Source: Botryllus schlosseri
Lineage: Eukaryota
Assembly (NCBI GenBank): GCA_051294905.1
Contig: CM119371.1
Coordinates: forward strand, 19,532,001 to 19,596,000
DNA length: 64,000 bases
Direction of reading: 5' to 3'
The notes beneath the pieces were generated by a model. That model made no database searches, was not told the origin of the DNA, and saw only the letters and a list, made by a program, of their open reading frames with translations. Below are positions 1,796-51,879 of this stretch, piece after piece. The position numbers and the translations under genes were made by a program. Position 1 is the first letter of the stretch; each line of letters opens with the position of its first letter.

Positions 1796-3802
1796 TCAGC
1801 CTTCAGTGAGAATCGGTTTCATCGGGGAAAGAGTCCGTGGGCAAACTAATCCTGGGAATTTGCAAAGCTTGCGAACCAATTCCTGAAAAGTAAATTATCC
1901 AGTGCCTAATTGACTAGGTTATTCCATGATGACGTCAATGCGTAATGGATTCATAAGCGGAGGTGTTCAAAGTAGGTGCTGGGGTAGATTTACAAGAAAA
2001 ACCACGAAATACATCTCGATTAGGAGCAGAAGTAGCAATTTCCAGGTTTTAAAAATAGATTTGGTCGTTGCGTCATATACTTTTAGCAGTTAATCGGAAG
2101 TAGCTACATTGACTGACGCACAATGACCAATGACACTATGCTAACAGGTATACGATTCTTTAAAATATATTCAGATACCATGATAGAAGGACTATATTCC
2201 GCACAGCTGTCATTAAAATTTCAAGCATAACATTGATGAAAGCATCTCCTAAAAATACTTTCTGTTGAAAGTGAGTAGTTTTGCCGAAGAAAACTGTAAT
2301 CCGAAGTGGAAGTATTCTACACACATTACTACTTGACTTAGTAGTAATAATGAGCAAAAATATTTTAGGAAGAATGAGTACTTCGATAACATAATTCCCT
2401 CTGGGTATAAACATAAGTAATACCTTAACCCGGTACTTGATTAAAACAATGTATAAAAGAGGTGATTCAAGTTGTCACGTGACTACATAGTGCACTTAGT
2501 GCAAAAAGTTAGTATGAAAAGTATTCAAGTATGTTGTTGAAGGAGTAGATTGGGACGAGGGAAGTAAGTAGTGGGAAAAGATTAAACCCATCTGAGTACT
2601 TTGAACATGTAGCAATACTATATTATCGACCACCTCCGGACTGGACATACGCAATATGCAATATGCATATAGGCTACATCGGGAGAGTATCAAACGGTAC
2701 GTTTGTATTTTGCACTATACTGACATAAGTCTGATAGCTTTGACTTACCAATTGGTTCTTTGTCAGACAGTACCCAGATCTAGTGGTGATTGGGATGATT
2801 GGAAGAACTATTTTCGTTGATGGGTAAGATGTACTTCCGCGGCAGAGAGGACCCACTTGGCAGACCAATCCTTTTCTGCGGTCGCATCGTCCGTATCGGT
2901 TGAATAAACCACCACAGCGTTCGTATTGTTTCTTAGGTCTGACGCACACGTAGCAGCAACTGAAACGATAAATATATTGTTGATTCAGAAACCAAGATAT
3001 AGTTTTTTTGTTAGTGACAAGAAGGCAACAATACGCAGATGTATTCAAAATAATCATTGACGTGCCTATGCTCAACACATGCTACATCAGCGGCGGGCAA
3101 TATACAGACCCGGCCAGCGACAGAATTTCGATCTGCCTCCTCAGAGAGTTTTACCCTGAAAGTGAATTTCTAATATGAAAGTTATGACAAACTGTAAGCG
3201 TCACTGAATAAATCCAAGTTTGAGAAAGATGGTCATGAAACTATGTCCTGTTCGGGTCTACATACAATTGCCGGCAAACATTTTCGACCACGAACATATT
3301 GACAATGCAAAGCAGCGATCCAATGTAACTGATGTTCACGTGCAGTTTTTACTAAAGGTTCTATATACGATATTCAGCCGGAGTTCAAAGAGCTTATTGA
3401 GAACTTTGATCGACTACAGATATCTGATTGACTTTAATAGCTCTTAAAGTAAATTACGGTAAATACTGTTTTGGTCTCTGTGCTTTAAATTTAAAGTTTA
3501 ACTTTAATACGTTTTATTCCTTGTATAGGTGGATAAAAGCTCGATTAATGTATCGATTCCGGGACCCCCCGAGCACCCCACGTCATTTCCCCACATCAGT
3601 CCCGCCGACCGGAGAAGTTTCCGGCCCTTATGCTACATGCTAACAGCACCTACCCGCATCTGTCCTTTTCGAGAATCTTTCCTTGTGGACATTTCGGTCT
3701 TGGACAGGACCTGGTACATGGCGCTCAACTCAGTGATTTCGATGGTGATGCTCCATGCACTGCACCGACGTAAAACAAAACGACGAGACACAAAGTATTC
3801 AT
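1796..3802 (-). pseudogene. G1: secreted IGFBP(IB)-domain Cys-rich protein paralog with in-frame TGA at codon 26; exons 3802-3654, 2959-2749, 1882-1796 (148 codons)
   Basis: Spliced product MNTLCLVVLFYVGAVHGASPSKSLS*APCTRSCPRPKCPQGKILEKDRCG|CCYVCVRPKKQYERCGGLFNRYGRCDRRKGLVCQVGPLC...SGYCLTKNQL|ELVRKLCKFPGLVCPRTLSPMKPILTEG; GT-AG sites intact (phases 2 and 0); TGA at 3727-3725 aligns with TGC in G3 and G4. Confidence 0.8.
3088..3450 (+). mobile_element. Decayed hAT (Buster/GTF2IRD2-like) transposase C-terminal fragment in intron 1; homologous copies at ~31785-32000 and ~51181-51520
   Basis: Translations such as LLVLFRSTYICEQTFSTM...RSNVTDVHVQ resemble the hAT dimerisation-domain motif FxSTYxCEQxFS. 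Confidence 0.65.
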
Positions 3803-4760
3803 AATCTCAGCTCCCAATATTATAAAACTATTCTACAAATATAGATCTATTTCAGATATATTTCTACCTCGCATGATAACAAATTGGCCCTAGCGACTAA
3901 TAGCGTTAGCTGCATATTGGTTTGATATCATGTCGGCCGTCGAACACAAGTATGGAGAACAAATAAGATATGGTGATTGGCTAGCGCCGGGGCTTTGGCA
4001 AGCAGAAATATATCTAGATACGAACTGTTTGTTTGTATTCTCCTGCAACCAGATGGCCTACGTGACAAAGTGATACGTTTTGGAGTAATCAAGTATGTTT
4101 CGTTTTGGAGTACTCAGGTATGTTTCGTCTTGGCAGGAATCAGCGAAATGGACGGTTTCTGTCTCTACAGTATGCATGACATTCCGCTGTATTATCGTTG
4201 CATGTTGGCATAACCACATGACTTAGATCAGGGGTGGGCAAACTACGGCCCGCGGGACGCATGCGGCCCGCAACACCGTTCTGTGCGGCCCGCGAGAGTC
4301 AAAATAGTATTGAAAATATTGATAAAATGAGTACTAAATATCGAAATAATGCAGGAGGCGCGCATCTGAAAGGGGGCGCGAAGCTGAGCTGGAAAAATTT
4401 TTCGCACTCCGCGCGATTTACACCCAAATCCTTATGATTGATCTATATTTAGTAGGAATTTCATATATAAAATCTCTCATCCACAGTCGTAACCTTCCAT
4501 GCCATCAAACTAGCCGTTAGGTTTGCTAGCATCCTACATGGTTGCGTTTTGTGATATGACGATAAGGGGGCTCGAAATCTTTTACCATCATAGGTGGGGG
4601 GGGGGCGGCATGTCTTGGGAAAGTTTGAGAACCACTGTTCTAAGGTAAATTCTTCCTATATTGTTTTTATGTTTAATTTCTGGCGCGACCATCTCAAGGC
4701 CCATACGCAGTTTGAAAGGTTTCAACTGCTAAACATCACAGAAATCCTAAACGAGATTGA

Positions 4761-5216: not shown

Positions 5217-5217
5217 A

Positions 5218-6314: not shown

Positions 6315-7886
6315 TTAATGCAACACGTAATCATTCAAATGTCTTGGTCTAACAATTCGTCTCCCTCTGGACGTATATCTTGGACTTGACTCGTTGAGAG
6401 TTCTGCCTTCATTACATGTTTGGGTCTTAGATTTGGATTCATGCCCATTATTATCGCGATCGACATCCACAGGTAAGCATTCAGAGATACGCTCTCGGGA
6501 CGCGCTACCAATACTACTCGGACAGTCGCTCTCGCTGTCATCACTACCGGACGAAATTACACCTGCGTCAACCGGATTAGCCGCGGAATTTAGTACCGAT
6601 TCGTCCGCATCAACGGGCGGAAACTGCTGAACGAAATCATCGAACGCGTCGTTATCTACATCAAATGGTGGAAAGTAACACACTTTCAGTCTGTCAATCG
6701 ACACGATTTTCTCTTTCCACTTAATCAACAAAGTGAAGGACTTCCCCGATTTCGATCTCTCGATTACCTTGTAAGGACCCACATACCAGAAATCAAAAGC
6801 GGTCTTTTTACCCCTCTCGTTTTTTACATAAACATGTGAACAAACCATGAGATCCGGCGGAACGTACGCATTTACATTGGTTCGTATGTTGGACTTATTG
6901 AAATTCAAGTTCTCGAAAAATTCCCGTACATCACAAAGCACCTCTGCTTGACTATTCTTGAACTTATTCGGGTCATATTCAAAATAGGTTCCAGGTAACC
7001 GCACATTTTCCCCATATGTCATTTCCGCCGCGGAATAATCATACCCCTCGCGCACAGAGGCATTCAATGACAAAATCACAAAAGGCAATAGCCTATCCCA
7101 GGCCGCGGGATTATTAGCGCACCGCAAACCGCGCTTTATCCGCCGAATCCCCGTCTCGGAGATCGAATTCTGCTGTGGTGAAAGTGCCAACGAAAATGAA
7201 TGTTTACATTCAAGGACCGACATGAACTTTTCCCATTCATACGAAGTAAACACTGAGCCCCGGTCTGACCTTATAACCATAGGTGCTCCACGATCCTTTA
7301 CAAAACCATCAATCAAAGCACGGATCACTGTGTCGGTATCTTGTCTTTTCATGGGGACTGCATTAGTATAATTTGTGACACGATCAACGATTATAAGAAA
7401 ATATCGATTACCATCTTCCGTTTCACGAAGCGGACCAGCGATGTCAATTGAAATGTCGACATTACGATCACTACGGCGCGGCACATGTTTTAAAGCGGAA
7501 CGCACATGACGAATTATTTTGCTTTTGCTACACATCGGACACGCCCGCACAGATTCTCGTAACCAACGATCCATGTCAGGGAACACGTAATGCCGTTTAG
7601 CGAATGCCAACGTCGCACGAATACCGGGATGCGACAACGAATGCACATGTTCAAACAACTCACGCCTCATATGACGTGGAACCCACACTCGTGGAATTAC
7701 AGACGACCTCTGTGATTTAGCGTCTACATCTGGGACGTGACAAATCACGCCCATCTCACACCCGACCAACTTCAACTCTATCAACTTCAAACCAGTCTCA
7801 CTCAAAGTACGCTCACGAAATTCTGCCAATTCCTTGTCTTGCCTCTGTGCAACTGCAATACGCTTTATAAAATCAGGCTTCAAGCC
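6315..7886 (-). CDS. pol: Gypsy pol, integrase part (HHCC zinc finger, DDE core, GPY/F module)
   Basis: HSLSHPG...CPMC, IDIAGPL, RSDRGSVF, WYVGPYKV; same frame as the upstream RT ORF, separated by a single TAG at 7889-7887. Confidence 0.93.
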   Translation of the reverse strand, partial: GLKPDFIKRIAVAQRQDKELAEFRERTLSETGLKLIELKLVGCEMGVICHVPDVDAKSQRSSVIPRVWVPRHMRRELFEHVHSLSHPGIRATLAFAKRHYVFPDMDRWLRESVRACPMCSKSKIIRHVRSALKHVPRRSDRNVDISIDIAGPLRETEDGNRYFLIIVDRVTNYTNAVPMKRQDTDTVIRALIDGFVKDRGAPMVIRSDRGSVFTSYEWEKFMSVLECKHSFSLALSPQQNSISETGIRRIKRGLRCANNPAAWDRLLPFVILSLNASVREGYDYSAAEMTYGENVRLPGTYFEYDPNKFKNSQAEVLCDVREFFENLNFNKSNIRTNVNAYVPPDLMVCSHVYVKNERGKKTAFDFWYVGPYKVIERSKSGKSFTLLIKWKEKIVSIDRLKVCYFPPFDVDNDAFDDFVQQFPPVDADESVLNSAANPVDAGVISSGSDDSESDCPSSIGSASRERISECLPVDVDRDNNGHESKSKTQTCNEGRTLNESSPRYTSRGRRIVRPRHLNDYVLH

Positions 7887-13074: not shown

Positions 13075-13076
13075 CA

Positions 13077-22811: not shown

Positions 22812-25041
22812 TCAAGCCTTCGTAAAATAGTTGATGGGGGTGTTCGCGCAAAGAAATCCCGGGAACTTGCAGAGCCTGCGAATCATTTCCTAAAATAAAA
22901 AACAGAGATAAAGAGAGAGTTAGAAAAATTCCGTAGGCTTTATTCTAATCTTCGTTACTAAGTTGCGATTTAAATAAGGATTGGGACAGTTTTGCGAAAT
23001 AAAGTGATAACTGTGAAGTAGGAATGGTATATACTCACAACAACCTGAGTGAGTAGTGCAGAGGTTCTCAACCTTTTTATGGTCGCGACCGAAAATTTCA
23101 ATTTGTTAATGTTCTGCGACCCCACTCTTAATTTTGCGTGCTTATTACTACAATATATGCACACCTTAGTTGAAATTATGCAATTATGAACTCGTCCTCA
23201 CTCTATCAAGACTATATAAACGTATATAGGTCATTTGGAACGATTTCTATATCAATCCGGGTTCACATTCTTCAGAGGTCGTTTTTTCTTCTACTTTGAA
23301 AAATGAACTAAAGCATCCACTTAATGGGCATTTCGTAATGGTCATTTGTAGGGCTGGGCAAAATAAAGTAGCCGAGTGATTCGATTCTGAATCACGTACC
23401 ACGCTTCGAGTCGAATCGAGTATTCGAGTATCACTCATTGTGACATCACAACATGATGTACTATGTCTAAGTTCAAAAATGTGCCTTTTATGCTACCACT
23501 AAGAACATAATGCCTGTTATCCATCATATTAAAGATACTTCGGTATTTTTCGACCATACCGATTTCATTGCACTTCTTGACAATGTTCTGTTATGATCAT
23601 GCTGATTTCGGAAATGTGTTATTTCAAGTAACGTTCGTAGCTTTGTACTAGGTCTCTTATGCTGCGACGTGGCCAATAAAGGTTTCATGGCTTCCACAGT
23701 TTAAAATAGTATCAAAACTATAATTCTCGTTAGTAAATTAACTTTTAGTTGCGAGTAGCGAATAATTTCAGTACTGGAAAAAATCGTCCTTTACTACTCG
23801 ACTCGAGTCATTAAAATTGTTTTTCGATTCAGATTCGAGTACTCAATTCATTGTGACCAGCCCTAGTCACTGGTATTTCATTTTTGTCTCTATGCGACCC
23901 CAGAGAATGGGCAAACGACATCATTTAGGTCGTGACCCCTACTTTGGGAACGTTTGAAGTAGCGGGAATAGGGTGCTAAACACAGTTTAGTACTCCAAAA
24001 AGGTAGAAGTGCGTCGTTACTGAACATCTCTGACGAAAACATGGCGTTAACTTACTGCGTCTTTCCTTCTTAGACAGTAACCTGATGGCGCGACTATCGG
24101 CATTGCAATGAAAGTAACACCGCCGCAGATAGGCCCAGACACGCACACTAGGTCTTTTCTGGTGTCACATTCTCCCAGCCGTTGAAAGCCACCGCATCGC
24201 TGATATAGCTGTTTCGGGCATTGGTAGCAGCACCTAAATGCAACGTAAAATTTACCGTTACGTGAGCAGAGGTGTCGGATGGGACTCCATTTAAAATTGC
24301 AGGGCGCATCTTCTCGACTATAGTGCTAAATGACTAATGCCACAACAAGTAGGTGGTATTTTCGAAACTAAATTTTGTTACCGCGATACAGGGCCTTCTT
24401 CGCCAAGTCGTTATGACAATTGAACACGTACAGGTGGCGCAAACATACACCAAAACCACGATCTACTTTAGAAAACGCAAGGTCGAAATGTAAGCAGCTT
24501 TGCTTGAAATAGGTTCGGTGGTAGAGGAAATATTCTAAATAGAAGTGTAGTGTAGTGCCGGTTACACTTACAATCTCTTCGTGAGAACTTTGGAAAAGTA
24601 TAAAAACAAGATACACTCTAAGCGAAAAGACTGTGTACTTACACCAGTGTACCATCCGTGATATATTGGTGTGAATAGACTAACACCACGGTATATATGA
24701 AACACAAATATTAATCCAAATGATGCATGCATTGCACGCTGGGACGCAAAAAGGCATGCACGTAGGCACGTAGGAAGTATAACCGAGATATAATTCAACA
24801 ATACGTATACGCTAAGAGTGTGACAATTATACATATAATCGCTGTCGCAATAGATAAAGGTAAGATCGCTTAATCATATGAAACAGGCCCCATCTCACAC
24901 TCACCCACAATAATCCTTTATTGGCATTCCTCCGCCAAAGCAATACGGGCGAGGACAAGGTCGTTTGCATGGTGGGCAGCGTATGCCTGTACAATACGCT
25001 GTACTGATGGCAAGCAATAATATGAAACACAGCGTATGCAT
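22812..25041 (-). CDS. G2: secreted IGFBP(IB)-domain Cys-rich protein, divergent paralog, 130 aa; exons 25041-24905, 24233-24056, 22889-22812
   Basis: MHTLCFILLLAISTAYCTGIRCPPCKRPCPRPYCFGGGMPIKDYCG|CCYQCPKQLYQRCGGFQRLGECDTRKDLVCVSGPICGGVTFIAMPIVAPSGYCLRRKDA|EMIRRLCKFPGFLCANTPINYFTKA*; signal peptide; same intron positions and phases as the paralogs; GTGAGT and GTAAGT donors. Confidence 0.9.
23059..23956. mobile_element. hAT MITE in G2 intron 2 with a second MITE nested at 23349-23865
   Basis: Outer CAGAGGTTCTCAA end with TSD gagtagtg/aagtagcg; inner TIR TAGGGCTGG with TSD gtcatttg/gtcactgg. Confidence 0.65.
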
Positions 25042-25699
25042 GATGGATTCTTGTCTAATAATAGAAAAAGGGACGTACACTCATTATATGTCTTATCAAG
25101 TCACATAATTATAGCCTACTGCCTATAGTGTTACTTCCCAAGTAGAAGTAGCAGTGATGCCGTAGATTTGTTCTTAATTACAAGTATCGATGTGAAAATA
25201 CCCAAGATGACATGTGAAAACTATTTGAAATAGTAACTGAAGAACTGAAAATTAATCAAGTGAGCATATGCAGTTTAAAAATGTTGATTTGTTTTTTTTT
25301 GCGGTTTATTAGAGGTGGTAATTTTCGAAATTGCTGACTGCATCTTCGCTACTGACGAAAAATGGCTAACGACACTACGAGTGCGAGGGTTATTTGTAAC
25401 TAAATCTCGTTACCGCGACACCGTGGTCATGAGAATTTTACGCATCAACGCGATGAAAGCATATCCGAAAATTAACTTTATTATCCTACATGATATCGAA
25501 AGTGCTCAAAGCAAGTAGTTCGTCCTGAAAAACTGTTGATTAAAAGTTGCAACGCAATCACTTGAAATAGATCGCGGCCAAACCAATAACCACCTCCTTG
25601 CGCATCACACAGATATCCAATCGCTCACTTACTTCAAGTTATCACCCATAATATACAGAAGCCCGCTGTACCGGCGAAAATTTACCTTTTTCAAATACG

Positions 25700-28095: not shown

Positions 28096-28151
28096 TAAAG
28101 GCCTACCCATATTCTACGACTCTTACATTGATCTAGCATATATTCTATAAG

Positions 28152-30507: not shown

Positions 30508-32331
30508 TCAGACTTCGGTGAGAATCGGTTTTACCGGGGAAGGAGTCCCTGGGCAAACTAACCCTGGGAATTTGCAAAGCTTGCGAGCCAATTCCTGGAA
30601 AGTAAATTATCCATTGCATAATTGACTGCAGTCAAACCCATGGGTTTTTCATGGTGGTTGCATAAGCCAATGCGTAATAGATTCATAAGCGGAGGTCTTC
30701 AAAGTAGGTACTGGGATAGAAGTACAATTAAAACCACGAATTACTACTGAATTACAAGCAGAAGTAGCAATTTTCAGGTTTTAAAAATAGATTTGGTCCT
30801 TGCGTCATACACTTTTAGCTGTTAATCGAGAGTAGCTACATTCAAGATTTGTGTATCATATTGACCAATAACACTAGAAATAGGTATACGATTATTTAAA
30901 ATATATTCAGCTATCGTGCTAGAAGGGCTATATTTCGCACAGCCGTCATATGAATTTCAAGCATATCGTGGATGAAAGCATATCATATAAATACTTTCTG
31001 TCCAAAGTGAGTAGTTTTGCCGAAAAAACTGTGTAGAAGTGGAAATATTCCACACACATTATCACTTGACTTAGGAGTTTTGATAAGCAAATATATTCGA
31101 AGAAGTATAAGTACTTCGTTACTAATTTCCTCTGGGTATAAACATAAGTAATACCTTAACGTGGTACTTGATTATATCCAGGTATAGAAGTGGTGATTCA
31201 AGTTGTGACGTGACTATTTAGTGTGGCAGTACAAAAAAAAAGTATGGAAAGTACTGAAGTATGTTGTTTGATGATGTAGTTTGGGAAGAGGGAAGGAAGT
31301 AGTGGAAAAAATTAAATCCACTTGAGTACTTTGAACATGTAGCAATATCGGCCGCCTCGGGTCTGGACATACGCAATATGCAATATGCATAGGCTATTTC
31401 GGGAGAGTATCAAACGGTACGTTTGTATCTTGCACTATACTGACACGAGTCCTATAGTTTTGACTTACCACTTGCTTCTTTGTCAAGCAGTATCCAGATC
31501 TACTGATGATTGGGATAACTATATTCTTTGCTGGATAAGATGTACTGCCGTGGCAGAGAGGACCCACTTGGCAGACCAATCCTTTTCTGCGGTCGCATCG
31601 GCCGTATCGGTTGAATAAACCACCACAGCGTTCGTATTGTTTCTTAGGTCTGACGCACACGTAGCAGCAACTGAAAAAAAAACAAAGATATTGTTGTATC
31701 AGGAATCAAAAGATATAGTTGTTTGTTGGTGACAAGAAGGCAGATCTAATACGCCGATCTAATCAAAATAATGTTTGCCAACCTGTGAAAGATGGTCAGG
31801 AAACTACTTCTTCTGTTTAGGTCTACATACATTTGCGTGCAAACATTTTCGACCACGAACACTGACCAGACAAGACTGCGATCCAATGTAACTTATGTGC
31901 GCGTGCAGTCTTTACTAAAGGTTCTATATACGACATGCAGTCAGAGTTCAGAGAACTCATTGAAAACTTTGATCGACCACAGATAGCTGATTGACTTCAA
32001 TAGCTTTTGCAGTACATTACGTTAAATACCGTTTTATTCTTTGTATAGGTGGATAAGAACGCGATTAATGTATCGATTCCGGAATCCAGCCCGTCGAATA
32101 GGCCTACCCTACGTCATCTCCCCACATCAGTCCCTCCGACCGGAGAAGTTTCAGGCCCTTATGCTACATGCTAACAACCTACCCGCATCTGTCCTTTTCG
32201 AGAATCTTTCCTTGTGGACAGTTGGGTCTTGGACAAGGCCTGGTACATGGCGCGCAACTCAGTGATTTCGTTGGTGATGCTCCATGCACTGCACCGACGT
32301 AAAACAATACGACAAGACACAAAGTCTTCAT
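30508..32331 (-). CDS. G3: secreted IGFBP(IB)-domain Cys-rich protein, 145 aa; exons 32331-32183, 31670-31469, 30594-30508
   Basis: MKTLCLVVLFYVGAVHGASPTKSLSCAPCTRPCPRPNCPQGKILEKDRCG|CCYVCVRPKKQYERCGG...SGYCLTKKQV|ELARKLCKFPGLVCPGTPSPVKPILTEV*; intact GT-AG sites; AATAAA downstream. Confidence 0.92.
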
Positions 32332-32949: not shown

Positions 32950-33780
32950 ACCGAGTCCATATTTATAACGTTTGTGGCAACCAGGTCTTCGCTATATTGA
33001 CTTCGCCCAAGCTTAGACCGCTGTGGACATTGTCAACTGGGATGATGTTCCCGATCTCAAAGGCGAATGTGATCTCTGTCTCATTGCGTGGCGATATTTA
33101 TGCTTTAGAGTCACGGGATGAAGCAATTAATCCTTGATAGTAACAAAATACCTCACTCGTTTAACGATCGAAAATGCTTCTCTATAATCGCCATATGGCT
33201 AGGTCAAGAGATAATTGTATCGGATTGATGGAGATCTTTATTTGCATAATCACAGGGTCGAACCAGTGACACACACAACTATGACAAAGTCTGCGTTTTT
33301 GCGAAAAAAAATATATACATTAAGCAGCATCCTTTCCTACAGTGGTAAAAGTAGCGAATATTGATATTCAAATACAAATAGAAACACTGTTCCGGTTTTC
33401 TACTAAATTGTGAGTAAAGCTGGCTCTTTTGAAGGCATGCTGAAGCATATTTAAAGAAAATGGGAATCGGGAGGTCAAGTTCTACTACAATTGAATAAAT
33501 ATACGTACTCAATTGAGTGGTTTGTAAATAGTAGATATAGGTAAATCCAAGATTGCCCGACAGTTCGATCATGATTCCTCAGTGGCGTTACTATGTATAG
33601 ATGTTGCCGGCGTTCGTCCAGTTGTTGTATACGCAGACTGTTTTAATTGAATTGATTGTCAATCTTTATATTCAAATTCTGTAATTGCGTGGGATGTCAA
33701 CGCATTGATCATTCCCCAGTCGCCAACAATTGAATATCGCGAAGAGTAGATATTTGAATATTGCGAAGGCACCTGACGGA
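32950..33780 (-). pseudogene. Decayed FUT8/GT23-like C-terminal relic (duplicate of 14270-15050; further partial copy ~40200-40560)
   Basis: KNADFVIVVC, YYQGLIA, SPRNETEITFAFEIGNIIPVDNVHSGLSLGEVN resemble the FUT8 end and SH3 region; stops and frameshifts present. Confidence 0.4.
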
Positions 33781-37265: not shown

Positions 37266-40200
37266 TCATTGTACACATTACAACTTTTTCAATTAAACTG
37301 TGGAAGATCAAGCGGCGCTTCTTCGTTTATCGATCAAAACGAGCCAGTGTTCCTCATCAACAAATGTTTCGCATGATCACGTCAAAATAAATTATTTTTT
37401 GCCTTTGGAGAGACGATTCCACTCTGGGGTTAGGGTGTCTCGATAACAGGGTTGAAGGATCCCAAGATCACGAGATCTACCGCGAGCCACGACACGTTTA
37501 AATTTCCTTTTTGATGCTGTTCATTCATATTTAATGCATTTCTAATGCGAACGTGTTCTAGTGCCAATTCCTCCAAGGGCCGAGTTCCCCAAGTGAAGAG
37601 CGTCGCGTTATTTCCCGCGATTACGCAATCTGTGATCTAATCACGCCGTGACTGTGTGATCTACGCATGCCCTGACCCCCGTACAACATAGACAACCACT
37701 CAAAGTGCCAAGTTCACCGGCAAACATTCCAGTAACCAATCATGGTGACCGGTACCGCTGCGAGATCTACCACGGCCGAATTCACCAAGTGTCGAGTTTG
37801 TGCGGCCGAATTCACCAAGTGACGAGTTCACTGGTAATCAGGCAGATACGGAATGATAATAATAAGAACCGGCCTGGTGTAAAATGACCAGCGTAGTCGA
37901 ACCACCACCATAAACACCACAAACAAACATCTAACATGGAAAAGAAATTACCTTTACACCCTTTGACAAACAGAGTTATCATTGAAATCAGCAATTTAAG
38001 TCTTATTCGAAAGCAGAATAACACACTACATTCTTGTACCAACTTTTATAAAATCACGAATCAGTGTTCTACAGGTATGTAGCCTATCTATATGACTTAT
38101 ATACCTAGAAAATTCAAGCATAAATATTACGATATACCGTAGGTATAGATACCGGTAATTTAGATGTTTGAAGCGACTTGGACAACTAGATAGATAATTA
38201 TAGTGGTCTAATTTCACTAAATTGGAGCGAAACGCCAGCAATATAATTGCAATCTAATTCGGAAAAAACGGTTTAGCTCTAATTCTAGCCAGGAAAAGCT
38301 GAAACTTTTCTATATAGTTGTCTACACCTGTTTAAAGAAAGTCAAACAACTCTAGGCGTCATATACTACAGGCAATTCGAAATACCCCCTAAGCTATATG
38401 CTACTGCGTATATACCTTTAACCCGCTACCTCAGTCAGTCACAATTCCTATATATTTACGGCATTTACCATACAGAAAGAGCGAACTATGCCTGGCTGCG
38501 ATCTATTGCGCGTCAAATCTTTGTCCGGCGCGATGGCGTAAAATTTGAATCGCCGAAATATTCTAGAAGTCACGCATCGATAATCATATTCCTAAACGTA
38601 CAACATCTCACTTATTTAGTTATCCTCTGAATAAAACTATTAGCCATACTCGTTGAACATGCGAGATTACCGAAAGAGTGAATATATATATAATGAAGAT
38701 CATATATATCAGAAGAAAACAAAACTGTTCGACCTTAGAGCAACAACACGAATATACAACACCGGTGACATCCTCACGCAATAAAACGAAGGGAGAACAT
38801 TGTTTTCTAATGGATAGATCGATGGATATGTTTTCCAATGGATATATCTTCCACCTCCCAAAACCCTCCTATAAAGTAATGTATCGTATATATCACTTTA
38901 TAGGAGGGTTTTGGGAGGTGGAATATGTATTTCTGGAGGTAAAAAAAATGTATTATACCTTCTTGACAGGTGTATGGCATACTCTACCTCTCGTAAAAGG
39001 AAGGAATATACTTTCCTCCTCCATTTTAGCCAAAAACCCACCTTTATTTTTTACAGTGTAGAGGAGGACGTATGGTAACAAAAGTTCCATCTAAGCTGCA
39101 CGCGCGCGCGCACCACTATCACAGTCTGCGCTCACAAAAAATCTGTGCAACGCAGAAACAAAATCCACATGTGGTTCGAAAAAGAAATGCTATGCCTTTC
39201 TCAAAAGGCTTTGATACTCATCCGACCACACTGACAACCCTTTTAGATGTACAAATATACATCACTAATTTGTAATAGATAATTCTTAATGAGACGAAGC
39301 GACGCCATCTCGGTAGATAGGTCGAGTACCCGAGTGCCCCGAGAAACACCATCTCCTCTCTCCAACGGACGAGTGAGTCCACGTTTTCCTTCTCTAAATT
39401 ATATTGCGTTTGAGCCCATGAGCGTCGCATTCCCGTACATCAAAATAATTCGTGAGTGATTTTCGTGTTAGTCTGGCGATTTGGATTTTGAAGGGAGCGG
39501 AAACACTCAGGGGTCGATATGGGGCGCTGGGACACCATGGGGGTAAAGTAGAAAAATGGCGTAGCAGTATATATGGTGTAGTAATAGTTATCATTGGGAT
39601 ACAAAGTCTATATAGTAGAACTATATCTCTATATATCATAAAATCTCGTTGGAAAATGCATATACCTTTGACAAAACTAATCAAAAATCCCGATTTCTCG
39701 TTGCGCATCGCGCGAAATATTCCGACGATGTATCAAATTTTCATAAATGCACTTGGTTACTATAATTCATGTCAAATGTAGGGTAGGTTTTATGCTCCAT
39801 GCGCGTACTTCTACATTGGAAAGTTTCCGTTAACACGGTTCTATCCAGACAAAATGTTTGGAACCGCTGCACACTGCTCATCCAAATCTGGAAACGCGGT
39901 TCTATACCAGTGATAGAATGGCGGTGGTTATGGTTTCGGACAGACCATTCCGGAGAATATGCGAAGTTTTCGCGCGATGCTCTAAAACAGATGATAGATT
40001 GCCAAAATGTCGTATCATTCAAATATGATGTAGCCTACATTGATATCTCCAGTAAATGTCGATGAATTCCCGTGACACGGAACAGACGTAACGTTTGATT
40101 CCTTCCCACTGTCACTATATGTACATAATTTGACGATATAAACTGGGGGATGTATCTATTCTATTCTATAGGATAAAGTAAGGGGTAATCAAGAATATCT

Positions 40201-43660: not shown

Positions 43661-45849
43661 TCAATTGTATATTCAAAATATGTACCTCCAAGAATCCATC
43701 TCACGTCATATTGCTAATCACAACCCTACATTTCAGTGATGTTTTAGCCAATATTAATGTACGGTGTAGCACAGGATACCTAACGACGACTCAGGCCACG
43801 TAATGCCACAATGCCGAAGTACATATTTACGCCAAATGTATCAACTGGGGCAATAAAATTATATAATGGTCCCATAACATCAATATATTCCGTCGCTTTA
43901 CCGACAATTTCGACGAGGAAACTTGCAAGAGAAAATAACTTACGCCTTAACGGTCTAGGTCAGACCAAGCAATGTATTCGGCGTGTGAGTATTGCTACGT
44001 TGATATTGAACAGTGTATAAAACGGGTTTCTGTACTTGCTACTGATTTACTTCAACAAGTTATGAAGCACTAGACAACACCCCAATCGCACGGATTTGGT
44101 TTTTACGATACAATAAACATATGAAATCAAGATTGACCCCGTGCGCCTGCTAGATTTTTTACATCAGACAATGATATTGATTGATTGGTTGAATAAGCAT
44201 AATTTGTTTACCATACCTACATATAGTGTATTTTGCTCTGGAAGTTGTGTGATTGCAGGTCAAGCTCACAGCAGTGGGTCATTAAATATTCACAAACGGA
44301 AAGCTGGATATTTCGAGCAAACTTTTGTAACAAAGCAGGTAATATTTTGAGATTGTCAAGATGCATGCTCGTTTAGTGTTAATTTTTATGCTGCCAGCGC
44401 CATGCATAGAGTGGCCCGCAGTTGGAATGCAATAAATTTCAACCAAAGATGTTATAATGAAGTAAAAATTGTAACATATGAAAAAGGTTCACAGTGCAGA
44501 ACCTACCAATGTTCGTTTGTGAACGTGAACCTATAAATAGCCTGGTGCACCTGATAGTTCGATATATAGTTGATGCCAGCGTGTAGTCCTGCATGCGGAC
44601 TCGCTAAATCAGATAAGAGACGATAGCGCAGATCAGACGTCAATGACCCATTTCGCATACAAATGATCCTCGGTAATTTGCAGTACGCAGCATCGATAAT
44701 ACGAATTAGTGAATAGGCATTTCAAAAGGACGGAAATTGTAGTTTTAAATGACAAACTCACTGGCTACGCACCTAGGGTTTTAATACCGACAACGCGCTG
44801 GTTACTTTCAGCCCGAGGAATACGGCCTACGTTGGACCCGATAAGCCAGTCGAATTTAATGACCCAGGTTTCATTGCAGCAAGAGCAATATGGGCGCATG
44901 CCGCAAACTTATCAATAGAAATACAAATCCCGATGGTTTGAAATTCGATCCGCGATATGGTCGCGCCCAATAGAGTTCGCCCAGCAAAGAAGTTTATTGG
45001 TTCCCGCTCAAAATAGTCGAATAAATTCAAAATATGTGCCACGAGAATCTCTCGTTGCATCGATACTTGACAACGTAATTCAACGCCGTGCACTGCACAA
45101 TGCCCAGTATTATTAACGAATCAAACGCTGACAAGTGACATCGAGGGAATGCGAGTGTATATAGCAGCCAAGAATTAGTAGCCTACAGATGATAGCAAAC
45201 GAGAAAGCGCTCATCTAATCAGTAATTCTTCAACTTGCGTAGAGCACAATGGGATCCGTGTGTCACATCGCGACAATTGATGGCTCATTATAACGACGTT
45301 TGAGCTGCAGTGCTGCATTTCCCGATAAAAGTTAGCAAAGCCTTGTTGGAGTAATGAATAAGCGCACTTTGCGCAGGAATGACTTTCAATTCGCAGGCAT
45401 ACACAAACACACTGTCGTGTTTCGTGCTCCAATTAAAAAGACTCACGAAACTAACTCAAGAATTATTTTGTAAACGAACATGCGCGCAAATAGATTTTAA
45501 TTGAGGGAAGTAGAACATGAATTAGGTCGTAAACGAGGTCGCTTCGATGGCATGATTACAAATCACGGATTACAATTTATTGGGGCGTTTCAAGCATAGT
45601 TCGTCGTCGCCGACGAAGCTGTGTATGGTGGTCATTTACGTGATATCACGGACTAGCCAATTGACAGCTCAGACGGCGGGTGTTGAAGCATTCTGTATGG
45701 GGTGGCCGCCACCCCATAATTGTGTCATTGTGTCACCCCGTACCTCGGCGCCTATGCCTCAGAGTGTCGGAAGCAATTTGTACGTTAGTTACTTTAGCAT
45801 ATAGGCCTACCGGGGAAATCAGTCAGTAAGACCACATATTTCGCTAACC

Positions 45850-46760
45850 CACTAATATAATTGGTATTTGTCGATTCGGAAAGATGGAATATTCATTTAT
45901 CCCTTACCAAGTAAATTCATCCGTGGACTCACAGTCCAATGACAATGATAAGAGAGTGAATCTGCGTATTTCAGCTCTAGTGCGCTTCATCGAAACATGC
46001 TAGTTCACCGCTTGTTGCACATTGGGCCGGGTGCATTATTGCACGTGCGATGTTGTATTTTATAACTGTAGGCAAATTAAAGTACTAAACGGTACAGTTA
46101 AAGAGGCAATTCCAATAATTATGCCATTGTCGGCATCTCGCAAATTCTTGGTTTCACCATACTCGGCAGATTGTTTGATTGGTGGTTTATGTTTAAAAGC
46201 GTTATAATACACGGTAAAGATATCTTCTAGAGATTACTTGGATGCCTTTCAATTTGCAATGTTTGTCTATTAGAAATGATTGTTCAAGAGGCCAGATTTG
46301 ATTTAAATATGAAATTATATCTTTCGACAGAATACAAGCCTAATATTGTTCTTAGCAAATCTCAGGCATTATGTGGATGTGGTATTAACTATGGATATTT
46401 TATTTTGCTAATATCAGTTCGATCGGGGCCCATTCATCCACTAGCTATATGGTCAATACAGGCAATGTTCTTTGTTTTACAAGTAATCAAAGTATAATAA
46501 GCGATGGCAACTGCTTAATGAAAATATATTGCTCGCTTGGATCCGCCCGGAAAATAACCTATAGTGTAATCCATTAGAGATTGTAATCAAGTGTAGAAGT
46601 AAGTGACACTGGAAAATACAGATGAAAGGTAAATGCATTTGAATTCAAATAAAAATAGAAGTGTGTGAATGTCAATTGTAGAATCTCAAACGTAATCGAA
46701 TAGCTTTAAAAGGATGATTAGCCTAGTCCGTTTATTACGTAATCCAAAACGTTGAACGTT
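45850..46760 (+). pseudogene. Decayed FUT8/GT23-like relic (homologous to ~26200-27190)
   Basis: SVIIH, MKLYLSTEYKPNIVL, LLNENILLA, CNQV in colinear order; 46510-46760 is similar in DNA to 26945-27190. Confidence 0.4.
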
Positions 46761-46774
46761 TTGAGAATATTAAG

Positions 46775-47911
46775 CATTGGTCGGGAACCTTTTTTGTACG
46801 AAGAGCCATATTGGCCCTATTTTTCCATCTCAACTCCCAAAGACCCATACATGCCATTCAACTCTTACGCCACTATTGGAAATTCATGACGTCATGGTAG
46901 CACTAATTCGAACTCACTCCATGGGATTCTTCGTGTGCGCCACATTTTCTCTGTAAAAACTGGTACTTATTGTTCGAAAATAAAGCTCGAAACGAGAGGT
47001 AAGACGTAGACGGGCCAAGCCTCACCAATGATAACGCAATTCATTGCATAAGTAGTTTAGAATATATTATAACTGATATTAATTAAATGTGACTGTCACA
47101 CTGATTCCGAAAATCTAAATAATTATCGACTTCTCCGTTCTCAAAGTATTCGGCGATAACGTAATGTTACGCTACATACATACATTTTATACCTCACAGA
47201 ACGTGGAGAAAATGGAGCGTGGATAGCTATGGCGTTGTTTGTAATTAGAGTCTGTAATTGTAAATGTCACATCCACAACAGTTCATTTCGCACCGTAGAT
47301 CAAAAAGACAATGGGTATTTAAAAGCTGCGTTTTGAAATGGGCGTCGCCATATCTGCTGTGCTCTTCGATTCAAGGTATCGCACAATTCATTATTTCGAT
47401 TCGGATACATCGCCAGGAGGTTTGAGCTACCAGTAATTTTTATAGCGTGGGTTGGAATCCCATCGCTGCCACTACGCCAGAATACAGAGCCTGTACTCCC
47501 TGTTGCACCACGAAACTATGTCACCACACGATAAACGTTTAGTACAGAAGAGACATCCTAACAGCACGAGTATATAGTTGTTATGTAAGACAACTAAATA
47601 AACGGCGCAATCAGAGAACTAATCATTAGCCTGTCAATTAACAGGTGCCTAGGCTCGGCTCCAGTATAACACAAACAATACTGGCGCATGGAATTCGCGA
47701 GTGATTTTGATGATTTTGAAGAGAGGGGGTCCGAGCCCCTAAACCTAAACATGTCTTTATCTCTCAAAGACATGTTTAAACTGCCACGAGAATAATTATT
47801 TTGGCGGTGATGAAAATTTACCAATAAGCTGCTGCAATATTGATCAATTCAGTACAAAAATAAATATTTGGCAATGAGCCATATCTTATACCGATAGGTT
47901 CCCAACCACTG
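46775..47911. mobile_element. hAT-type non-autonomous element
   Basis: CA(T/G)TGGT(C/T)GGGAACC TIRs; degenerate 8-bp TSD atattaag/gtataaag. Confidence 0.6.
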
Positions 47912-48499
47912 GTATAAAGGCTAGCTGCAGCAGTCGCCATAAAGAACGTTTATTGCTCATTCGCTATAAGTTACGTTGCGCATTTTTGTGCATCAAAACA
48001 ATGTAGACCGATGTTCGAGACAATTTTTAATTGACAAAATTTGGTGTGTAAAACGAAGGATTTCGCTCTGGAAACATTTGCGGCACATCACAAAGGTATC
48101 CCGAAGCCTACCTTCCGAAAATGCAGATCAATCGTAATGAGAATTGCTAAGGAATGAGTGGAAGTCAGAAGTGTCAGCTGAGATTCACAATACCAAGGCC
48201 TCAATACGAGATAATAGAATCGTCTATCTATTCCAGTGGTTCCCAACCGTTTTCCACCCGCGTACCATTTCGAGGTTTCATGCAGTGCTCGTGTACCCCC
48301 TACATAAGTTACGCGCGCCGAAGGCGGTCAAAAATGTTTCCACCGCGTTGAGCTACCGAAGCCAGCGAAACAGAAAATAAACTGCCCATTTAAAGGTGCA
48401 AGTGGATCCATTTGGAATTCTTGTGTTCAAATATATTAAAACGAAATTTGTTTAGGTAATAATCCCAATGCTTTACGACTAGATCTCTTCCCCGTAGGT

Positions 48500-48929
48500 C
48501 AGGGGTGGCCACTCATTTTGCCATTCACGGCCAAAAATTTCAACTACTCATGCAGCCAACGGCCGCATTCCATGGCATAGTCGTAATTAGCTATAGGTGG
48601 GCGACAAATGCCCACATTAGAGTGTCTGTCTATATCCATTTCTGGTGAACTCCGGACTTATCTATTTAATCATATAGGCTTGCTATACGCACCGAAATCG
48701 CGAGTGGTCACTGGTGATGTTATGGGACTGCTAGCATTGCCGCGCGGATTGTCAAACTTTTTTTTAAAGATTTACCAATGAATTACGTGATTAATATTAG
48801 TAGTTCAAGAAATCGGGAGTCAATTCGTAAATTCAAATTTCATGTCGACGGCCGCCAACACATATTGATTTAATTACGTGTCCACGGCCGCACAAATTCC
48901 CTTCTACGGCCGCACGTTGGCCAACCCTG
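48500..48929. mobile_element. hAT MITE nested in a partial copy of the 620-1065 MITE family
   Basis: CAGGG(G/T)TGGCCA TIRs; TSD ccgtaggt/ccgcaggc. Confidence 0.7.
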
Positions 48930-49273
48930 CCGCAGGCCGTCCCTGGTGCGATTGTCCTTACCAACGACGACGACGGCCAGGAATCATGCGGTAAATGCGC
49001 TATCAGGCGTATTACTCAACCAGTTCGCTATAATGTATGTCGGAGAATTTGCTATTTCGTCAAATACAATAATGTAAGAAGACTTATCACAATCATACCC
49101 TTTGGTGCACACATAGTAGTCGAGAGCTAAGACGCTACACCAACCAATCAACTGCTTTTCTCAGATTCATGCAATGATGTATTTATGCAATGTATTTATT
49201 CGCACACATTTCTTCAATTCATCACCATGCACGAAAAGGTCATGTATTCGTTATGACGACAGTAACGCTTCGC

Positions 49274-51879
49274 TCAGCCTTTGGTGAGAACAGGTTGGAT
49301 GGGGTAAGGAGTCCGTGGGCAAACCAATCCCGGGAATTTGCAAAGCTTGCGAACGACTTCCTGAAAAGTACATTACTCAGTGCGTAATTGACTGGGCCCG
49401 TCCGGGCTGGCTGTATAAGACAATGGGTAATGTATTCATAAATGGAAGTGGTCAAATTAGGTACTGGAATAGAAGTTGAAGTAACACCACAAACGTCTAC
49501 CCAATTACAAGTACAAATAGCGGTTTACAAACTACTTCAAGTTTAGTTCTAAATGTACTCAAGTAATGAGGTTTGGAAAATATATCTGGTCTACGCTACT
49601 TTCAAGACTCCGCGACTGACACATGCTGACTAATGACGTTACATATTGAAGGATTCTTCAAAATATATCCAGCTACCGCGATACAGAGGCTTTTTTGTTA
49701 TCTTGGCAATTACACTCATAAAATTGATGCAGACATCCCCTAGAACTACTTTTTACTTTATGTCCCCTAAAGTGCAGTGATGTAATGAGTAGAGTCATGA
49801 CTCGACTCGAGTTCGACTCCAGTCCTTATTTTTTGTTCACTCGACTTGACTCGAGGCATGTTTTCAAATGCTTAAAAATGACTCGACGTGACGCGAGTCA
49901 ATTCGTGTATTGACTCGAGTCACTGTGCATGACTCGAACCAAGTCATGACTTAAGACTAGGACGGCCGAGACGGACATTTCATTGTAACGTCGAAGAATA
50001 CTAAAGTTACTGCATTATTGGTTTTTCGTCTATCAGTCCTGATATTTGGAAAAAGGGCAATAAACTGTTAGGGCTGAGAAAATCTACGATTTTATGAACG
50101 TGAGCCATTGTATATCACCGAAACAGAGTTGAAAAAAGTGGGTTGAACCGGATTGAATTCAAAACTGAACAGGGGACACAATGACTTCGAATCAGACTCG
50201 AGTCGCAACACTATGACTCGGACTCGACTGTCTACTATCTGACTGGGACTAGGACTCGACTCAGTGGTGAATTGAAAATGACTCGACTTGACTCGAGTTA
50301 AAACGATAAAAATGAGATTGAATGGTGACTCGGAACCTTGTGACTTGGTTTCAACCGTGTTAAAGTGTAAAAAGTGAGTCGTTTCCCCTAAAAACTGTCA
50401 AGTACAAGTGGAAGTGTTCTAAATACGTTACCACTTAACTTAGTAGTGTAGGTAATCAAAAACATTTTAGGATTCAGAAAAAGTACAAATACTTCGATTT
50501 TAACTCTCTCTGGGTATAAGGATAAGTAATACCTTAACCTGGTATTCAATTATATCCAGGTTTAGAAGTGGTGATTCAAGTTGTGACGTGACTTCTTGAA
50601 GTAACAGTCCCAAAATATAGTATGCAGAGTATTCGAATAGGTTACTTGAAGAATTAGACTATAGGGTGGGGGAAATGAGTAGTGAAAAAAGATTAAATCC
50701 GCTTGAGTACTTTGAACATGTACCAATACTATATTATTGACCACCTCAGTACTGGAGATACGCAATATGCGTAGCCTACATCGGTAGAGTATCAAACGAT
50801 ACGTCTCTTGTACTACTAGGATGAGTCTTACTTATAGTATTGACTTACCACTTCCTTCTTTGTCAGACAGTATCCTGATCTACGGACGATTGAAAGGGCT
50901 ACAGGTTTTGATAGATAAGGTGCACTGCCGCGGCAGATAGGACCCACTTGGCAGACCAATTTTTTTCTGGGGTCACATTGTCCGTAATAGTTGTACAAAC
51001 CACCACAGCGTTCGTATTGTTGCTTAGGTCTGGCGCACACGTAACAGCAACTGAAAGGACACATATATTATTGATTCAGAAATCAAGATAAATATTTTGT
51101 GATGACATCACGGCAGCAATATGCAGATATAATCAAAATAATCATTGGCGATGTCAATATATGTACCACACGTGTTACATCAGTGGCGGGCATCATACGC
51201 CCCGTGGGATGATTTTGATCGGCCGTCAGAGAGTTTCTACCCTGAAAGTGAAACTATAATCTGAAAGTAGTGACAAATTGTATGCACACTGAACGAATCC
51301 AAGTATGGATCCCGATAAATATGGTTATGGTCATGGAACTACTTGTTCTGTTCCGGTCTACATACATTTGCGAGCAAACATTTTCGACCATGGACATGGC
51401 CAAGACAACGCTTCCTTTCAACCTATACGTGATGATCACGTGCAGGTTTCTATATCCGACACGCAACCAATGTTCAAAGAACTTTGTTCAATCACAGCTA
51501 TCTGATTAACTTCACCAGCTATTGATGGACATTATGTTAAATACTGTTTTGATCTCTATGCTTTAAACTTGAAGTCTACATTAAATATGGTTTATTCCTT
51601 GTATAGGTGGATAAATACGCGAATGATTTATCGATTTGGGAATCCGGCCCTACAAGTACGCATTATCCTATATCAGTCCTGCCGTCCGGAGTAATTGTGC
51701 GCGCCTGTGCTAAATGCTAGCAATACATACCCGCATCTGTCCGTTACGGGAATCTGTCCATATGGACAGTAGGGCCTTGGACAAGGCCTGGTACATGGTG
51801 CGCAGCGCAGCGATGTCGTTGATGATGCTTCATGCACTGCACCGACGTAAAACAAAACAACAAGACACAAAGTCTTCAT
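49274..51879 (-). CDS. G4: secreted IGFBP(IB)-domain Cys-rich protein, 145 aa; exons 51879-51731, 51050-50849, 49360-49274
   Basis: MKTLCLVVLFYVGAVHEASSTTSLRCAPCTRPCPRPYCPYGQIPVTDRCG|CCYVCARPKQQYERCGG...SGYCLTKKEV|EVVRKLCKFPGLVCPRTPYPIQPVLTKG*; intact splice sites. Confidence 0.92.
49775..50359. mobile_element. GACTC-rich hAT-type MITE in G4 intron 2 (related sequence at ~16320-16560)
   Basis: Absent from G1 and G3 intron 2; TSD ctaaagtg/ttaaagtg; arrays of GACTCGA. Confidence 0.7.

Follow-up and report, generated by a model that had tools for sequence, protein, structure and literature searches.

The 64,000-nt stretch of Botryllus schlosseri DNA analyzed here (the window; GCA_051294905.1, contig CM119371.1, 19,532,001 to 19,596,000; all coordinates below are positions in it) carries four three-exon gene sets, G1 to G4, which belong to a tandem cluster of 16 genes across about 590 kb. 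G2 and G4 are transcribed, cis-spliced, and joined to a trans-spliced leader. Judged by sequence, each gene combines a signal-like N terminus with a single IGFBP N-terminal (IB) domain and no second known domain. We read the products as predicted secreted, soluble extracellular ligand-binding proteins of a 16-member tandem three-exon IB family with a family-specific tail, and give this reading a probability of about 45%. The pattern in general is common, with small secreted cysteine-rich proteins of known fold forming a tandem family restricted to one lineage; described here is a 16-gene, transcribed stand-alone IB family with a conserved three-cysteine addition common to two ascidians. The family is an example of IB scaffold diversification, and the exact gene models provide a candidate set for binding studies.

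Gene models, splicing, and trans-splicing

A six-frame scan for cysteine-rich open frames returned four minus-strand exon-2 frames (2677-3081, 24050-24325, 31397-31705, and 50831-51067), and exons 1 and 3 were then located gene by gene. A hidden Markov model (HMM) census of the whole window found exactly four minus-strand sets of three exons and, besides these, an orphan exon-3 relic (39901..39981, minus), a degraded fifth copy in which the first tail cysteine has become arginine and which contains an in-frame stop. In G1, exon 1 (3654..3802) holds the start codon, a signal-like segment, and the positions of IB cysteines 1 to 5, with TGA rather than TGC at cysteine 1; exon 2 (2749..2959) runs from CCxxC through G-Y-C plus six codons; and exon 3 (1796..1882) encodes the two-cysteine tail and the stop, with AATAAA following at 1724. 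The corresponding exons 1, 2, and 3 are at 24905..25041, 24056..24233, and 22812..22889 in G2; at 32183..32331, 31469..31670, and 30508..30594 in G3; and at 51731..51879, 50849..51050, and 49274..49360 in G4. All lie on the minus strand, exon 3 of each contains the tail and stop, and AATAAA follows at 30430 in G3 and at 49200 in G4.

All eight introns are GT..AG. The lengths of exon 1 (149, 137, 149, and 149 nt in G1 to G4, respectively) put intron 1 in phase 2, where it interrupts the glycine codon within CG|CC; exons 1 and 2 together total a multiple of 3, which puts intron 2, six codons past G-Y-C, in phase 0. The twelve minus-strand exons and shared intron phases given in the preliminary description were thus all found in place, and its outer limits, 1796 and 51879, are the ends of the rebuilt models. 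The precursors encoded by the four genes are 130 to 148 codons long. The signal peptides proposed earlier also fit: the N termini of G1 to G4 place 21 to 25 residues ahead of the first domain cysteine, and their core is hydrophobic (Kyte-Doolittle mean over 10 residues, 2.6 to 3.3).

RNA junction reads, suggested at the outset as a check, matched the predicted joints of both introns of G2 and G4 exactly. In G2, joint 24233|24905 was crossed by 26 reads of run X3; joint 22889|24056, a 1,166-base skip, was crossed in its canonical position by 9 X3 reads, and the same skip shifted by one base was present in 8 X3 and 16 X7 reads. In G4, 4 X3 reads crossed joint 51050|51731, and 16 reads from three runs (12 X3, 2 X5, and 2 X7) crossed joint 49360|50849. 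One common spliced leader was present on the mRNAs of both genes. Its acceptor (AG|A) in G2 is at 25054..25056 (minus strand), 13 nt upstream of the ATG, with the leader on 43 X3 reads; in G4, the acceptor is at 51923..51925 (minus strand), 44 nt upstream of the ATG, with the leader on 12 X3 reads. The G4 acceptor context is also conserved upstream of G1 and G3.

These reads belong to the G2 and G4 loci, since most of the sites that tell each gene from its twin, 13 of 20 for G2 and 37 of 43 for G4 (or 38, by subtraction), are absent from the variants seen in the reads. At the listed variant sites, the few reads at G3 show bases other than those of G3. No further joints were seen in G2 or G4 reads, which are bounded by the leader at the 5' end and by a stop inside exon 3; the additional exons that the preliminary description had allowed for thus did not appear in these two genes.

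A single IB domain with three added cysteines

The whole family is homologous to the IB domain on several lines of sequence comparison, in keeping with the single domain per protein first proposed. The signature CGCCxxC spans the exon 1/2 joint in G1 to G4 and in 14 of the 16 cluster members overall, the other two having CRCCxxC, and all 12 IB-spaced cysteines (the first being TGA in G1) align with the Pfam-grade IB domains of the same genome and with known IB proteins. Each of the 16 exon-2 pieces matched positions 30-55 of PF00219 at an E value of ≤1 (best, 4.3e-4). The window exon pieces, which are half-domains, scored 12.2 to 15.3 bits over these positions, and the best exon piece of any cluster member scored 22.3 bits, below the PF00219 gathering cutoff of 28 bits. 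When scored with an HMM built on six IB domains of the same genome, 13 of 13 spliced proteins reached 20.5 to 35.8 bits, compared with 7.6 bits for the best of 650 shuffles. In hhalign, the family aligned with the genome's Pfam-grade IB domains with a probability of 97.5% (E value, 6e-12) across the exon 1/2 joint. No other Pfam family matched the window pieces or the 16 exon-2 pieces, no Pfam match was found for the G3 exon-3 piece, and the proteins end 25 to 28 residues into exon 3. A sequence-level search of the PDB with the exon-2 profile found no match, and an exon-2-only structure model of the window family was poor (pLDDT, 60.5), with no significant structural match.

The fold is seen more clearly in one of three Styela clava homologues from RefSeq (XP_077973606.1, XP_039262129.2, and XP_039274674.1). 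The three proteins (P0002, P0003, and P0004) match PF00219 at full length with 32.9, 32.6, and 29.2 bits (cutoff, 28), and an HMM of the 16 spliced B. schlosseri proteins covers their full length, including the tail, with 91 to 106 bits. They share the signal-like start, the IB domain, the extra cysteine downstream of C11, and a tail that contains a K-x-C motif, and two of the three have 15 cysteines in the mature part; they are, however, just 30 to 40% identical to G1 to G4, and their names are computer-given. The first is called "single insulin-like growth factor-binding domain protein-2"; the other two are called "venom protein 302-like," one having earlier been "CCN family member 2-like." These last two names are uninformative for such proteins and are corrected here; we found no paper on any of the three. 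The AlphaFold model of P0003 (pLDDT, 84.1) supports an IB fold with confidence for this homologue: its eight best PDB matches are all IB domains, headed by spider SIBD-1 (3zxc_B; E value, 1.5e-4; target-normalized TM score, 0.76), and its structural matches include 8ivd and 3tjq. Also among them is an IGFBP7-CD93 complex, a reminder that IB domains bind nonhormone partners as well.

Mature cluster members have 15 cysteines in 14 of 16 cases, the remaining two having 14 and 16. The 15 conserved cysteines comprise the 12 of the IB domain, one that follows C11 at a distance of six residues, and a pair in the exon-3 tail. This tail is 25 to 28 residues long and forms a helix in the model of the Styela homologue. 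Two earlier ideas about this region have to be given up: G-Y-C, assigned to a new module, contains the twelfth IB cysteine, and the supposedly private C-terminal exon encodes a tail found in all three Styela proteins. The most variable structured segment is the C11-C12 loop, with a mean pairwise identity of 0.27 versus 0.55 to 0.59 for the scaffold. Pooled pN/pS was 0.63 for the loop versus 0.27 for the scaffold, a loop value that is below 1 and rests on small counts (15.5 nonsynonymous versus 8.5 synonymous). In vertebrate IGFBPs, the C11-C12 loop holds the hydrophobic IGF contact.

Several known proteins resemble the family in part. SIBD-1 of the spider Cupiennius salei (PDB 3zxb and 3zxc) and the arthropod single-IB proteins likewise have a lone IB domain behind a signal peptide, but SIBD-type proteins have 12 cysteines and no tail, in contrast to the 15 cysteines and conserved exon-3 tail of the family. 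Perlustrin of abalone nacre and the neuroparsins of arthropods are also small, stand-alone, and IB-like, but belong to different phyla, contain 12 cysteines, and do not have the tail. The N domain of vertebrate IGFBP1-6 (PF00219; mini-IGFBP-5, PDB 1boe) shares CGCCxxC, the 12-cysteine spacing, and a hydrophobic stretch ahead of the last cysteine (G-x-C); the family, in contrast, lacks the linker and the thyroglobulin type-1 C domain, and its IB domain is split by an intron. Three other genes in the same genome split the IB domain at the identical CG|CC point, and none of the nine other IB exons inspected there has the extra cysteine. IGFBP7, the HtrA1 N domain, and CCN proteins are alike in IB fold but are set apart by additional modules (Kazal/Ig, protease, or VWC) or by the absence of the extra cysteine. 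ESM-1 (endocan) resembles the family in having an IB-type head and a short unique C terminus; its cluster appeared among the Atlas look-alikes at 0.75, which is below the level reached by shuffled proteins, and is treated as a lead only.

The sixteen-gene cluster and its possible ligands

The tandem expansion described earlier stands, with 16 genes rather than four. Within the array, a block of four genes is duplicated, and there are relics as well as disabled copies. The Lys/Arg-rich composition noted earlier holds for the window subfamily (pI 9.0 to 9.6 from the first domain cysteine onward) and not family-wide, where pI ranges from 4.8 to 9.7 over the 16 members and three members are acidic (pI 4.8 to 5.6). 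For the nine paralogue pairs with computable dS, dN/dS was 0.09 to 0.60; the family is under purifying selection.

For secreted ligand-binding proteins of this kind, the disulfide-rich IB scaffold would present the C11-C12 loop as a binding surface, and the tail helix would be fastened to the IB domain via the extra cysteines, leaving one cysteine that may be free or available for an interchain link. Some stand-alone IB proteins bind IGF or insulin, and by analogy insulin-like peptides would be the first-choice ligands here; perlustrin, according to PMC4244560, binds IGF. An exon-by-exon search of the genome for the insulin family (PF00049) returned at least one exon match, and according to the review PMC12702675, no functions of tunicate insulin-like peptides have been reported. 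Sixteen genes are many for hormone carriers. The 16 copies vary in loop sequence and charge, which suggests that there is more than a single ligand.

The main alternative, possible if somewhat unlikely, is that these are instead defense or matrix proteins independent of insulin-like peptides, a secreted IB-scaffold set that binds microbial or matrix targets; they would be sited in blood cells, tunic, or mucus, and for the cationic window subfamily a direct effect on membranes is conceivable. The array, with its block duplication and its relics and disabled copies, is in line with this, as are the variable loop and charge, the single PF00049 match found (a lower bound), and the fact that the closest solved fold is spider SIBD-1. 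PMC7866140 describes shrimp single-IB genes as expressed "only slightly ... in hemocytes" and cites a paper whose title presents a crab SIBD as involved in immune response. The three acidic members, however, mean that cationic killing cannot be the common function of the family, and dN/dS was below 1 wherever measured. Fast tandem turnover is more typical of defense or surface proteins. A further reading, which we consider improbable, is that ascidians have rebuilt the hormone-binding IB scaffold as a diversified recognition repertoire. Family-specific cysteines would staple a C-terminal helix to the ligand-binding half, a conserved but unpaired 15th cysteine would allow covalent dimers, and a hypervariable contact loop, multiplied through tandem duplication, would yield many specificities, the products being innate immune binders and not hormone carriers.

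Neuroparsin-type signaling, in which the products would be receptor ligands instead of hormone-sequestering proteins, is very unlikely. Neuroparsins are stand-alone 12-cysteine IB-like hormones (PMC4244560), and a prawn SIBD-2 comes near the Pfam Neuroparsin family at 23.2 bits (cutoff, 23.5); yet that family (PF07327) was matched neither by the window pieces nor by the 16 exon-2 pieces (weak evidence, since these are half-domains) nor by the three Styela homologues, and sixteen divergent copies would require many receptors.

Disabled copies and the state of G1

Of the four genes first described, the four three-exon sets remain, but G1 has an in-frame TGA that had been missed. It lies at codon 26 (3725..3727, minus strand), at the first IB cysteine, which is TGC in G2 to G4 and in the twin m19691k, and as assembled, G1 is not an intact gene. 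That G1 nevertheless works, with the TGA read as selenocysteine or representing an assembly error or a rare allele, seems quite improbable to us. The TGA is a single base change from a cysteine codon, and the G1 branch has no nonsynonymous excess (5 synonymous and 6 nonsynonymous changes, compared with 6 and 5 in the twin). Against selenocysteine, no Rfam match for SECIS at the gathering score was found in the whole window, and no SECIS row at an E value of ≤10 was found in window positions 1-1900, the 1.9 kb on the 3' side of G1.

The G1 stop, the acceptor of m19958k (AT), the tail cysteine lost from m19691k, and the two relics could be taken to mean that most of the cluster is DNA in decay, or that it is a gene prediction artifact, without functional products, but this is hardly credible: it is contradicted for G2 and G4 by junction reads that fit the predicted joints exactly and by trans-spliced mRNAs, and it is opposed by the dN/dS range, by cysteines kept in 14 of 16 copies, and by the same architecture in Styela clava. 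Coding variants in the reads were synonymous and nonsynonymous in ratios of 13:6 for G2 and 5:5 for G4.

Gene models in the window and the surrounding cluster

A six-frame scan of the window revealed four related, cysteine-rich open frames on the minus strand; pattern searches and DNA alignment then placed one exon upstream and one short exon downstream of each. Exons 1, 2 and 3 lie, all on the minus strand, at 3802-3654, 2959-2749 and 1882-1796 in G1; at 25041-24905, 24233-24056 and 22889-22812 in G2; at 32331-32183, 31670-31469 and 30594-30508 in G3; and at 51879-51731, 51050-50849 and 49360-49274 in G4. All eight introns have GT..AG borders; the first, of phase 2, cuts the glycine codon in C-G|C-C, and the second, of phase 0, follows six codons past G-Y-C. 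These exon models reproduced the coordinates and intron phases of the preliminary description. The products of G3 and G4 are 145 residues long and that of G2 130 residues; G1 has 148 codons. Across the whole gene, introns included, G1 and G3 are 81-83% identical in DNA, and G4 and G3 are 70-76% identical. An HMM census of all open frames of the window detected exactly four three-exon sets and one orphan exon-3 relic. The relic, at 39901-39981 on the minus strand, is a fifth copy closest to the cluster member m19857k; its first Cys has become Arg and it contains an in-frame stop, and no remnants of exon 1 or exon 2 were found near it.

We searched the 495-Mb assembly, in which the window is C1:19,532,001-19,596,000, with exon 2. 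Sixteen family copies, of which 15 are minus-strand, were found at 19.53-20.12 Mb of C1, along with unrelated exons elsewhere in the genome that encode the IGFBP N-terminal (IB) domain. With the flanks fetched, the three-exon build and the intron phases proved identical in all 16. A tandem cluster of four genes had been proposed at the outset; the tandem family stands, but its count is 16. A second block mirrors G1-G4 in order with the twins m19691k, m19815k, m19836k and m19849k, and these eight genes form a single clade (support, 95/93) within which the tree recovers three of the four twin pairs and does not resolve that of G4. The introns of G1 are 85-93% identical to those of its twin and 76-81% identical to those of G3. 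Genome-wide, the tail exon (exon 3) gave eight matches, every one within the cluster. No processed copy, in which exons 1 and 2 would be fused, turned up in a pattern search. Two long reading frames in the window, at 6315-10479 (minus strand), between G1 and G2, and at 59530-64000 (plus strand), appear retroelement-like, both being of gag, protease, reverse-transcriptase and integrase type as judged by eye; the latter opens with a frame of about nine tandem 15-residue units.

Damaged sites are present in m19958k, whose acceptor reads AT, in m19691k, where a tail Cys is replaced by Ser, and in G1, whose codon 26, that of the first domain cysteine, is TGA. The TGA is a derived change on the G1 branch, which has accumulated five synonymous and six nonsynonymous changes, about as many as its twin. 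G1 is most likely a recent null allele or a young pseudogene, although the TGA may instead reflect an assembly error or a polymorphism. Selenocysteine at this codon was rejected, as no SECIS element was detected at the Rfam gathering score over the window or at an E value of ≤10 over positions 1-1900.

Spliced and trans-spliced transcripts of G2 and G4

Reads from four RNA-seq runs that carry the same species label, each sampled at ~6-13%, were mapped to positions 22000-33000 and 44000-54000 of the window. The preliminary description had named spliced reads over the predicted junctions as a check, and for G2 and G4 they are present at both introns of each gene. In G2, 26 reads of run X3 cross the joint 24233|24905, and nine X3 reads show the 1,166-base skip between 22889 and 24056. 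A skip of the same length offset by one base (22889/22890, 24056/24057) was seen in a further eight X3 and 16 X7 reads, and this offset probably arose in the alignment, from differences between alleles at the exon 2-3 joint. In G4, the joint 49360|50849 is crossed by 12 X3, two X5 and two X7 reads, and the joint 51050|51731 by four X3 reads. No additional joints touching G2 or G4 occur in the mapped reads. At sites that distinguish each gene from its twin, the twin's base was absent as a read variant at 13 of 20 for G2 and at 37 of 43 (38 by subtraction) for G4; the reads derive from the window loci, not from the twins. Read cover of G3 is almost nil, and the few reads present differ at the listed variant sites.

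At their 5' ends, reads of both genes continue into one identical sequence, at 25056 for G2 (43 reads) and at 51925 for G4 (12 reads). AG acceptors lie at these points (25054-25056 and 51923-51925), 13 and 44 nt 5' of the ATG, respectively, and the leader joined to the two mRNAs is the same, ~24 nt long. What precedes it in the reads is presumably an adapter end. A 21-nt word of the leader occurs 331 times in the genome, compared to no occurrences of the reversed control. A GT directly follows the word in two of four inspected copies, as in leader-RNA genes; the other two run into different sequence and may be retroposed trans-spliced mRNAs. We read the shared 5' sequence as the product of spliced-leader trans-splicing, a process reported from tunicates (PMC1488885). 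With the leader at the 5' end and a stop in exon 3, the mRNAs of G2 and G4 start just 5' of the ATG and leave no room for further domains, so that the additional exons that would have made these genes ordinary multidomain proteins are not borne out by the transcripts.

Just upstream of G4, positions 52016-52700 have read cover in all four runs, and many loose read ends at 52226-52228 continue into differing sequences. This pattern fits a transcribed repeat family better than a part of G4.

An IB domain with an extra cysteine and a short tail

Pfam scans were run on single exons, with a cutoff of 28 bits for the IB model, PF00219. Each of the four window exon-2 pieces matches positions 30-55 of the model at 12.2-15.3 bits, below the cutoff, and all 16 exon-2 pieces of the cluster match at an E value of ≤1. 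Neither the three exon-1 pieces scanned nor the G3 exon-3 piece had any Pfam match. Spliced proteins were then compared with an HMM built from six of the genome's own IB domains; five of these exceed the Pfam cutoff, and the other is just below it. All 13 spliced proteins compared scored 20.5-35.8 bits, while the best of 650 composition-preserving shuffles reached 7.6 bits, and a profile-profile comparison of the family with the genome's IB domains gave a probability of 97.5% (E value, 6e-12) in a match spanning the exon joint. When one exon 2 or the exon-2 profile was searched against PDB sequences, nothing matched at an E value of ≤10. An AlphaFold model of exon 2 of the window family was poor (pLDDT, 60.5); its Foldseek rows were nonsignificant, the top two being the single-IB-domain protein SIBD-1 and mini-IGFBP-5. 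Look-alikes in the Atlas (amfpi-1, SIBD-2 and ESM-1) scored ≤0.78 and serve as leads only.

Counted from the first domain Cys, with the TGA of G1 taken as Cys, 14 of the 16 members have 15 cysteines, one has 14 and one has 16. The 15 comprise the 12 of the IB domain, an extra Cys that lies six residues past C11 in the motif P-[ILV]-C, and two in exon 3. The extra Cys is invariant in all 16 members, whereas it is lacking in nine other IB exons of the same genome and in the other, nonfamily IB proteins aligned. A reading of G-Y-C as the start of a new module was dropped, because alignment pairs it with G-x-C, the twelfth Cys in other IB domains. The cluster also contains a degenerate exon 2, the seventeenth (C1:20104001-20106099, positions 1877-2086 therein, minus strand), which retains neither the CCxxC start nor the extra Cys nor G-Y-C. 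Over its first 15 residues, exon 3 is conserved to the same degree as the scaffold, with a mean pairwise identity of 0.56 compared to 0.55-0.59. Variation is greatest in the loop that runs from the extra Cys to C12, with an identity of 0.27 and a length of 13-25 residues. In five twin pairs taken together, the loop has a pN/pS of 0.63, compared to 0.27 for the scaffold and 0.36 for the tail core, all from small counts. A Lys/Arg-rich composition, ascribed to the genes in the preliminary description, holds for the window subfamily (pI 9.0-9.6) but not for three other cluster members, which are acidic (pI 4.8-5.6).

The same phase-2 CG|CC split is found in IB domains of three other genes, at C7:501000-510999, C5:20635000-20644999 and C2:8327500-8337499 of the assembly (G000). 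The intron is therefore older than the cluster. In contrast to the family, all three lack the extra Cys and the tail, and the C7 gene continues into several cysteine-rich exons that by eye are VWC-like, resembling a CRIM1-type arrangement.

Relatives, selection and candidate ligands

An exhaustive library search with the exon-2 profile yielded 36 proteins at an E value of ≤0.001 among 1.84 billion. After P0001, the best matches were three Styela clava RefSeq predictions (P0002, P0003 and P0004), which score 32.9, 32.6 and 29.2 bits on PF00219, above the cutoff. An HMM of the 16 spliced proteins covers all three from signal to tail at 91-106 bits; they are 30-40% identical to G1-G4, share the extra Cys and, in two of the three, have 15 cysteines. 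The AlphaFold model of P0003, built from a 27-row alignment, has a pLDDT of 84.1, with 92-97 across most of the domain, and places both tail cysteines in a helix of residues 103-122. IB domains fill its top eight PDB rows (five of SIBD-1, two of IGFBP7 and one HtrA1 N-domain), and one of the 23 structural rows listed reaches an E value of ≤0.001 (3zxc_B, 1.5e-4).

Neither G3 exon 2 nor the 16-piece profile had any match among longer proteins in word-indexed searches, and in the "near" length class the single match was P0001. This is a genomic open frame across a family exon 2, from a Logan contig of 1,114 nt, and it is flanked by acceptor and donor contexts like those of the family. Its identity to the subgroup of m19903k, m20023k and m20074k is 75-77%, and the present assembly does not encode it (best identity, 76%). 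P0001 comes from another assembly, so the family is present in at least one more. Two library proteins from a fish assembly, labelled Prochilodus magdalenae, are the adjacent "hypothetical proteins" P0005 (GenBank KAI4897407.1), with four IB units, and P0014 (KAI4897408.1), with two. A signal-like stretch stands before every unit, and the two look like merged models of a tandem set of small genes with one IB domain each; families of this kind may thus occur outside ascidians.

IB proteins that stand alone have precedents, and RefSeq already lists the Styela relatives under automatically assigned names. The ascidian 15-cysteine IB subfamily is real and well defined. No published description of an ascidian IB subfamily with this cysteine pattern and tail was found in the literature on ascidian IGFBP-type proteins and single-IB expansions, and it is only on account of this search that we call the family undescribed.

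Purifying selection has conserved the family: nine pairs with computable dS have a dN/dS of 0.09-0.60, and synonymous and nonsynonymous coding read variants number 13 and 6 in G2 and 5 and 5 in G4. The N termini are signal-like, and the proteins would be soluble extracellular binders, with a putative binding surface on the C-terminal half of the IB domain, to which the extra cysteines may pin the tail helix. By analogy, insulin-like peptides would be our first choice of ligand: perlustrin is described as binding IGF (PMC4244560), and many invertebrate IB proteins as binding insulin or IGF (PMC7866140). A role in defence or matrix instead of hormone binding comes close behind, favored by the many gene copies, the variability of the loop, the range of charge among members, the single insulin-family exon detectable in the genome (a lower bound), and the link of arthropod SIBDs to haemocytes or immunity.

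Leader trans-splicing, the Styela clava proteins as nearest relatives and two GH6-domain matches in long open frames of the genome all agree with a tunicate source; among animals, the GH6 domain is known only from tunicate cellulose synthase.
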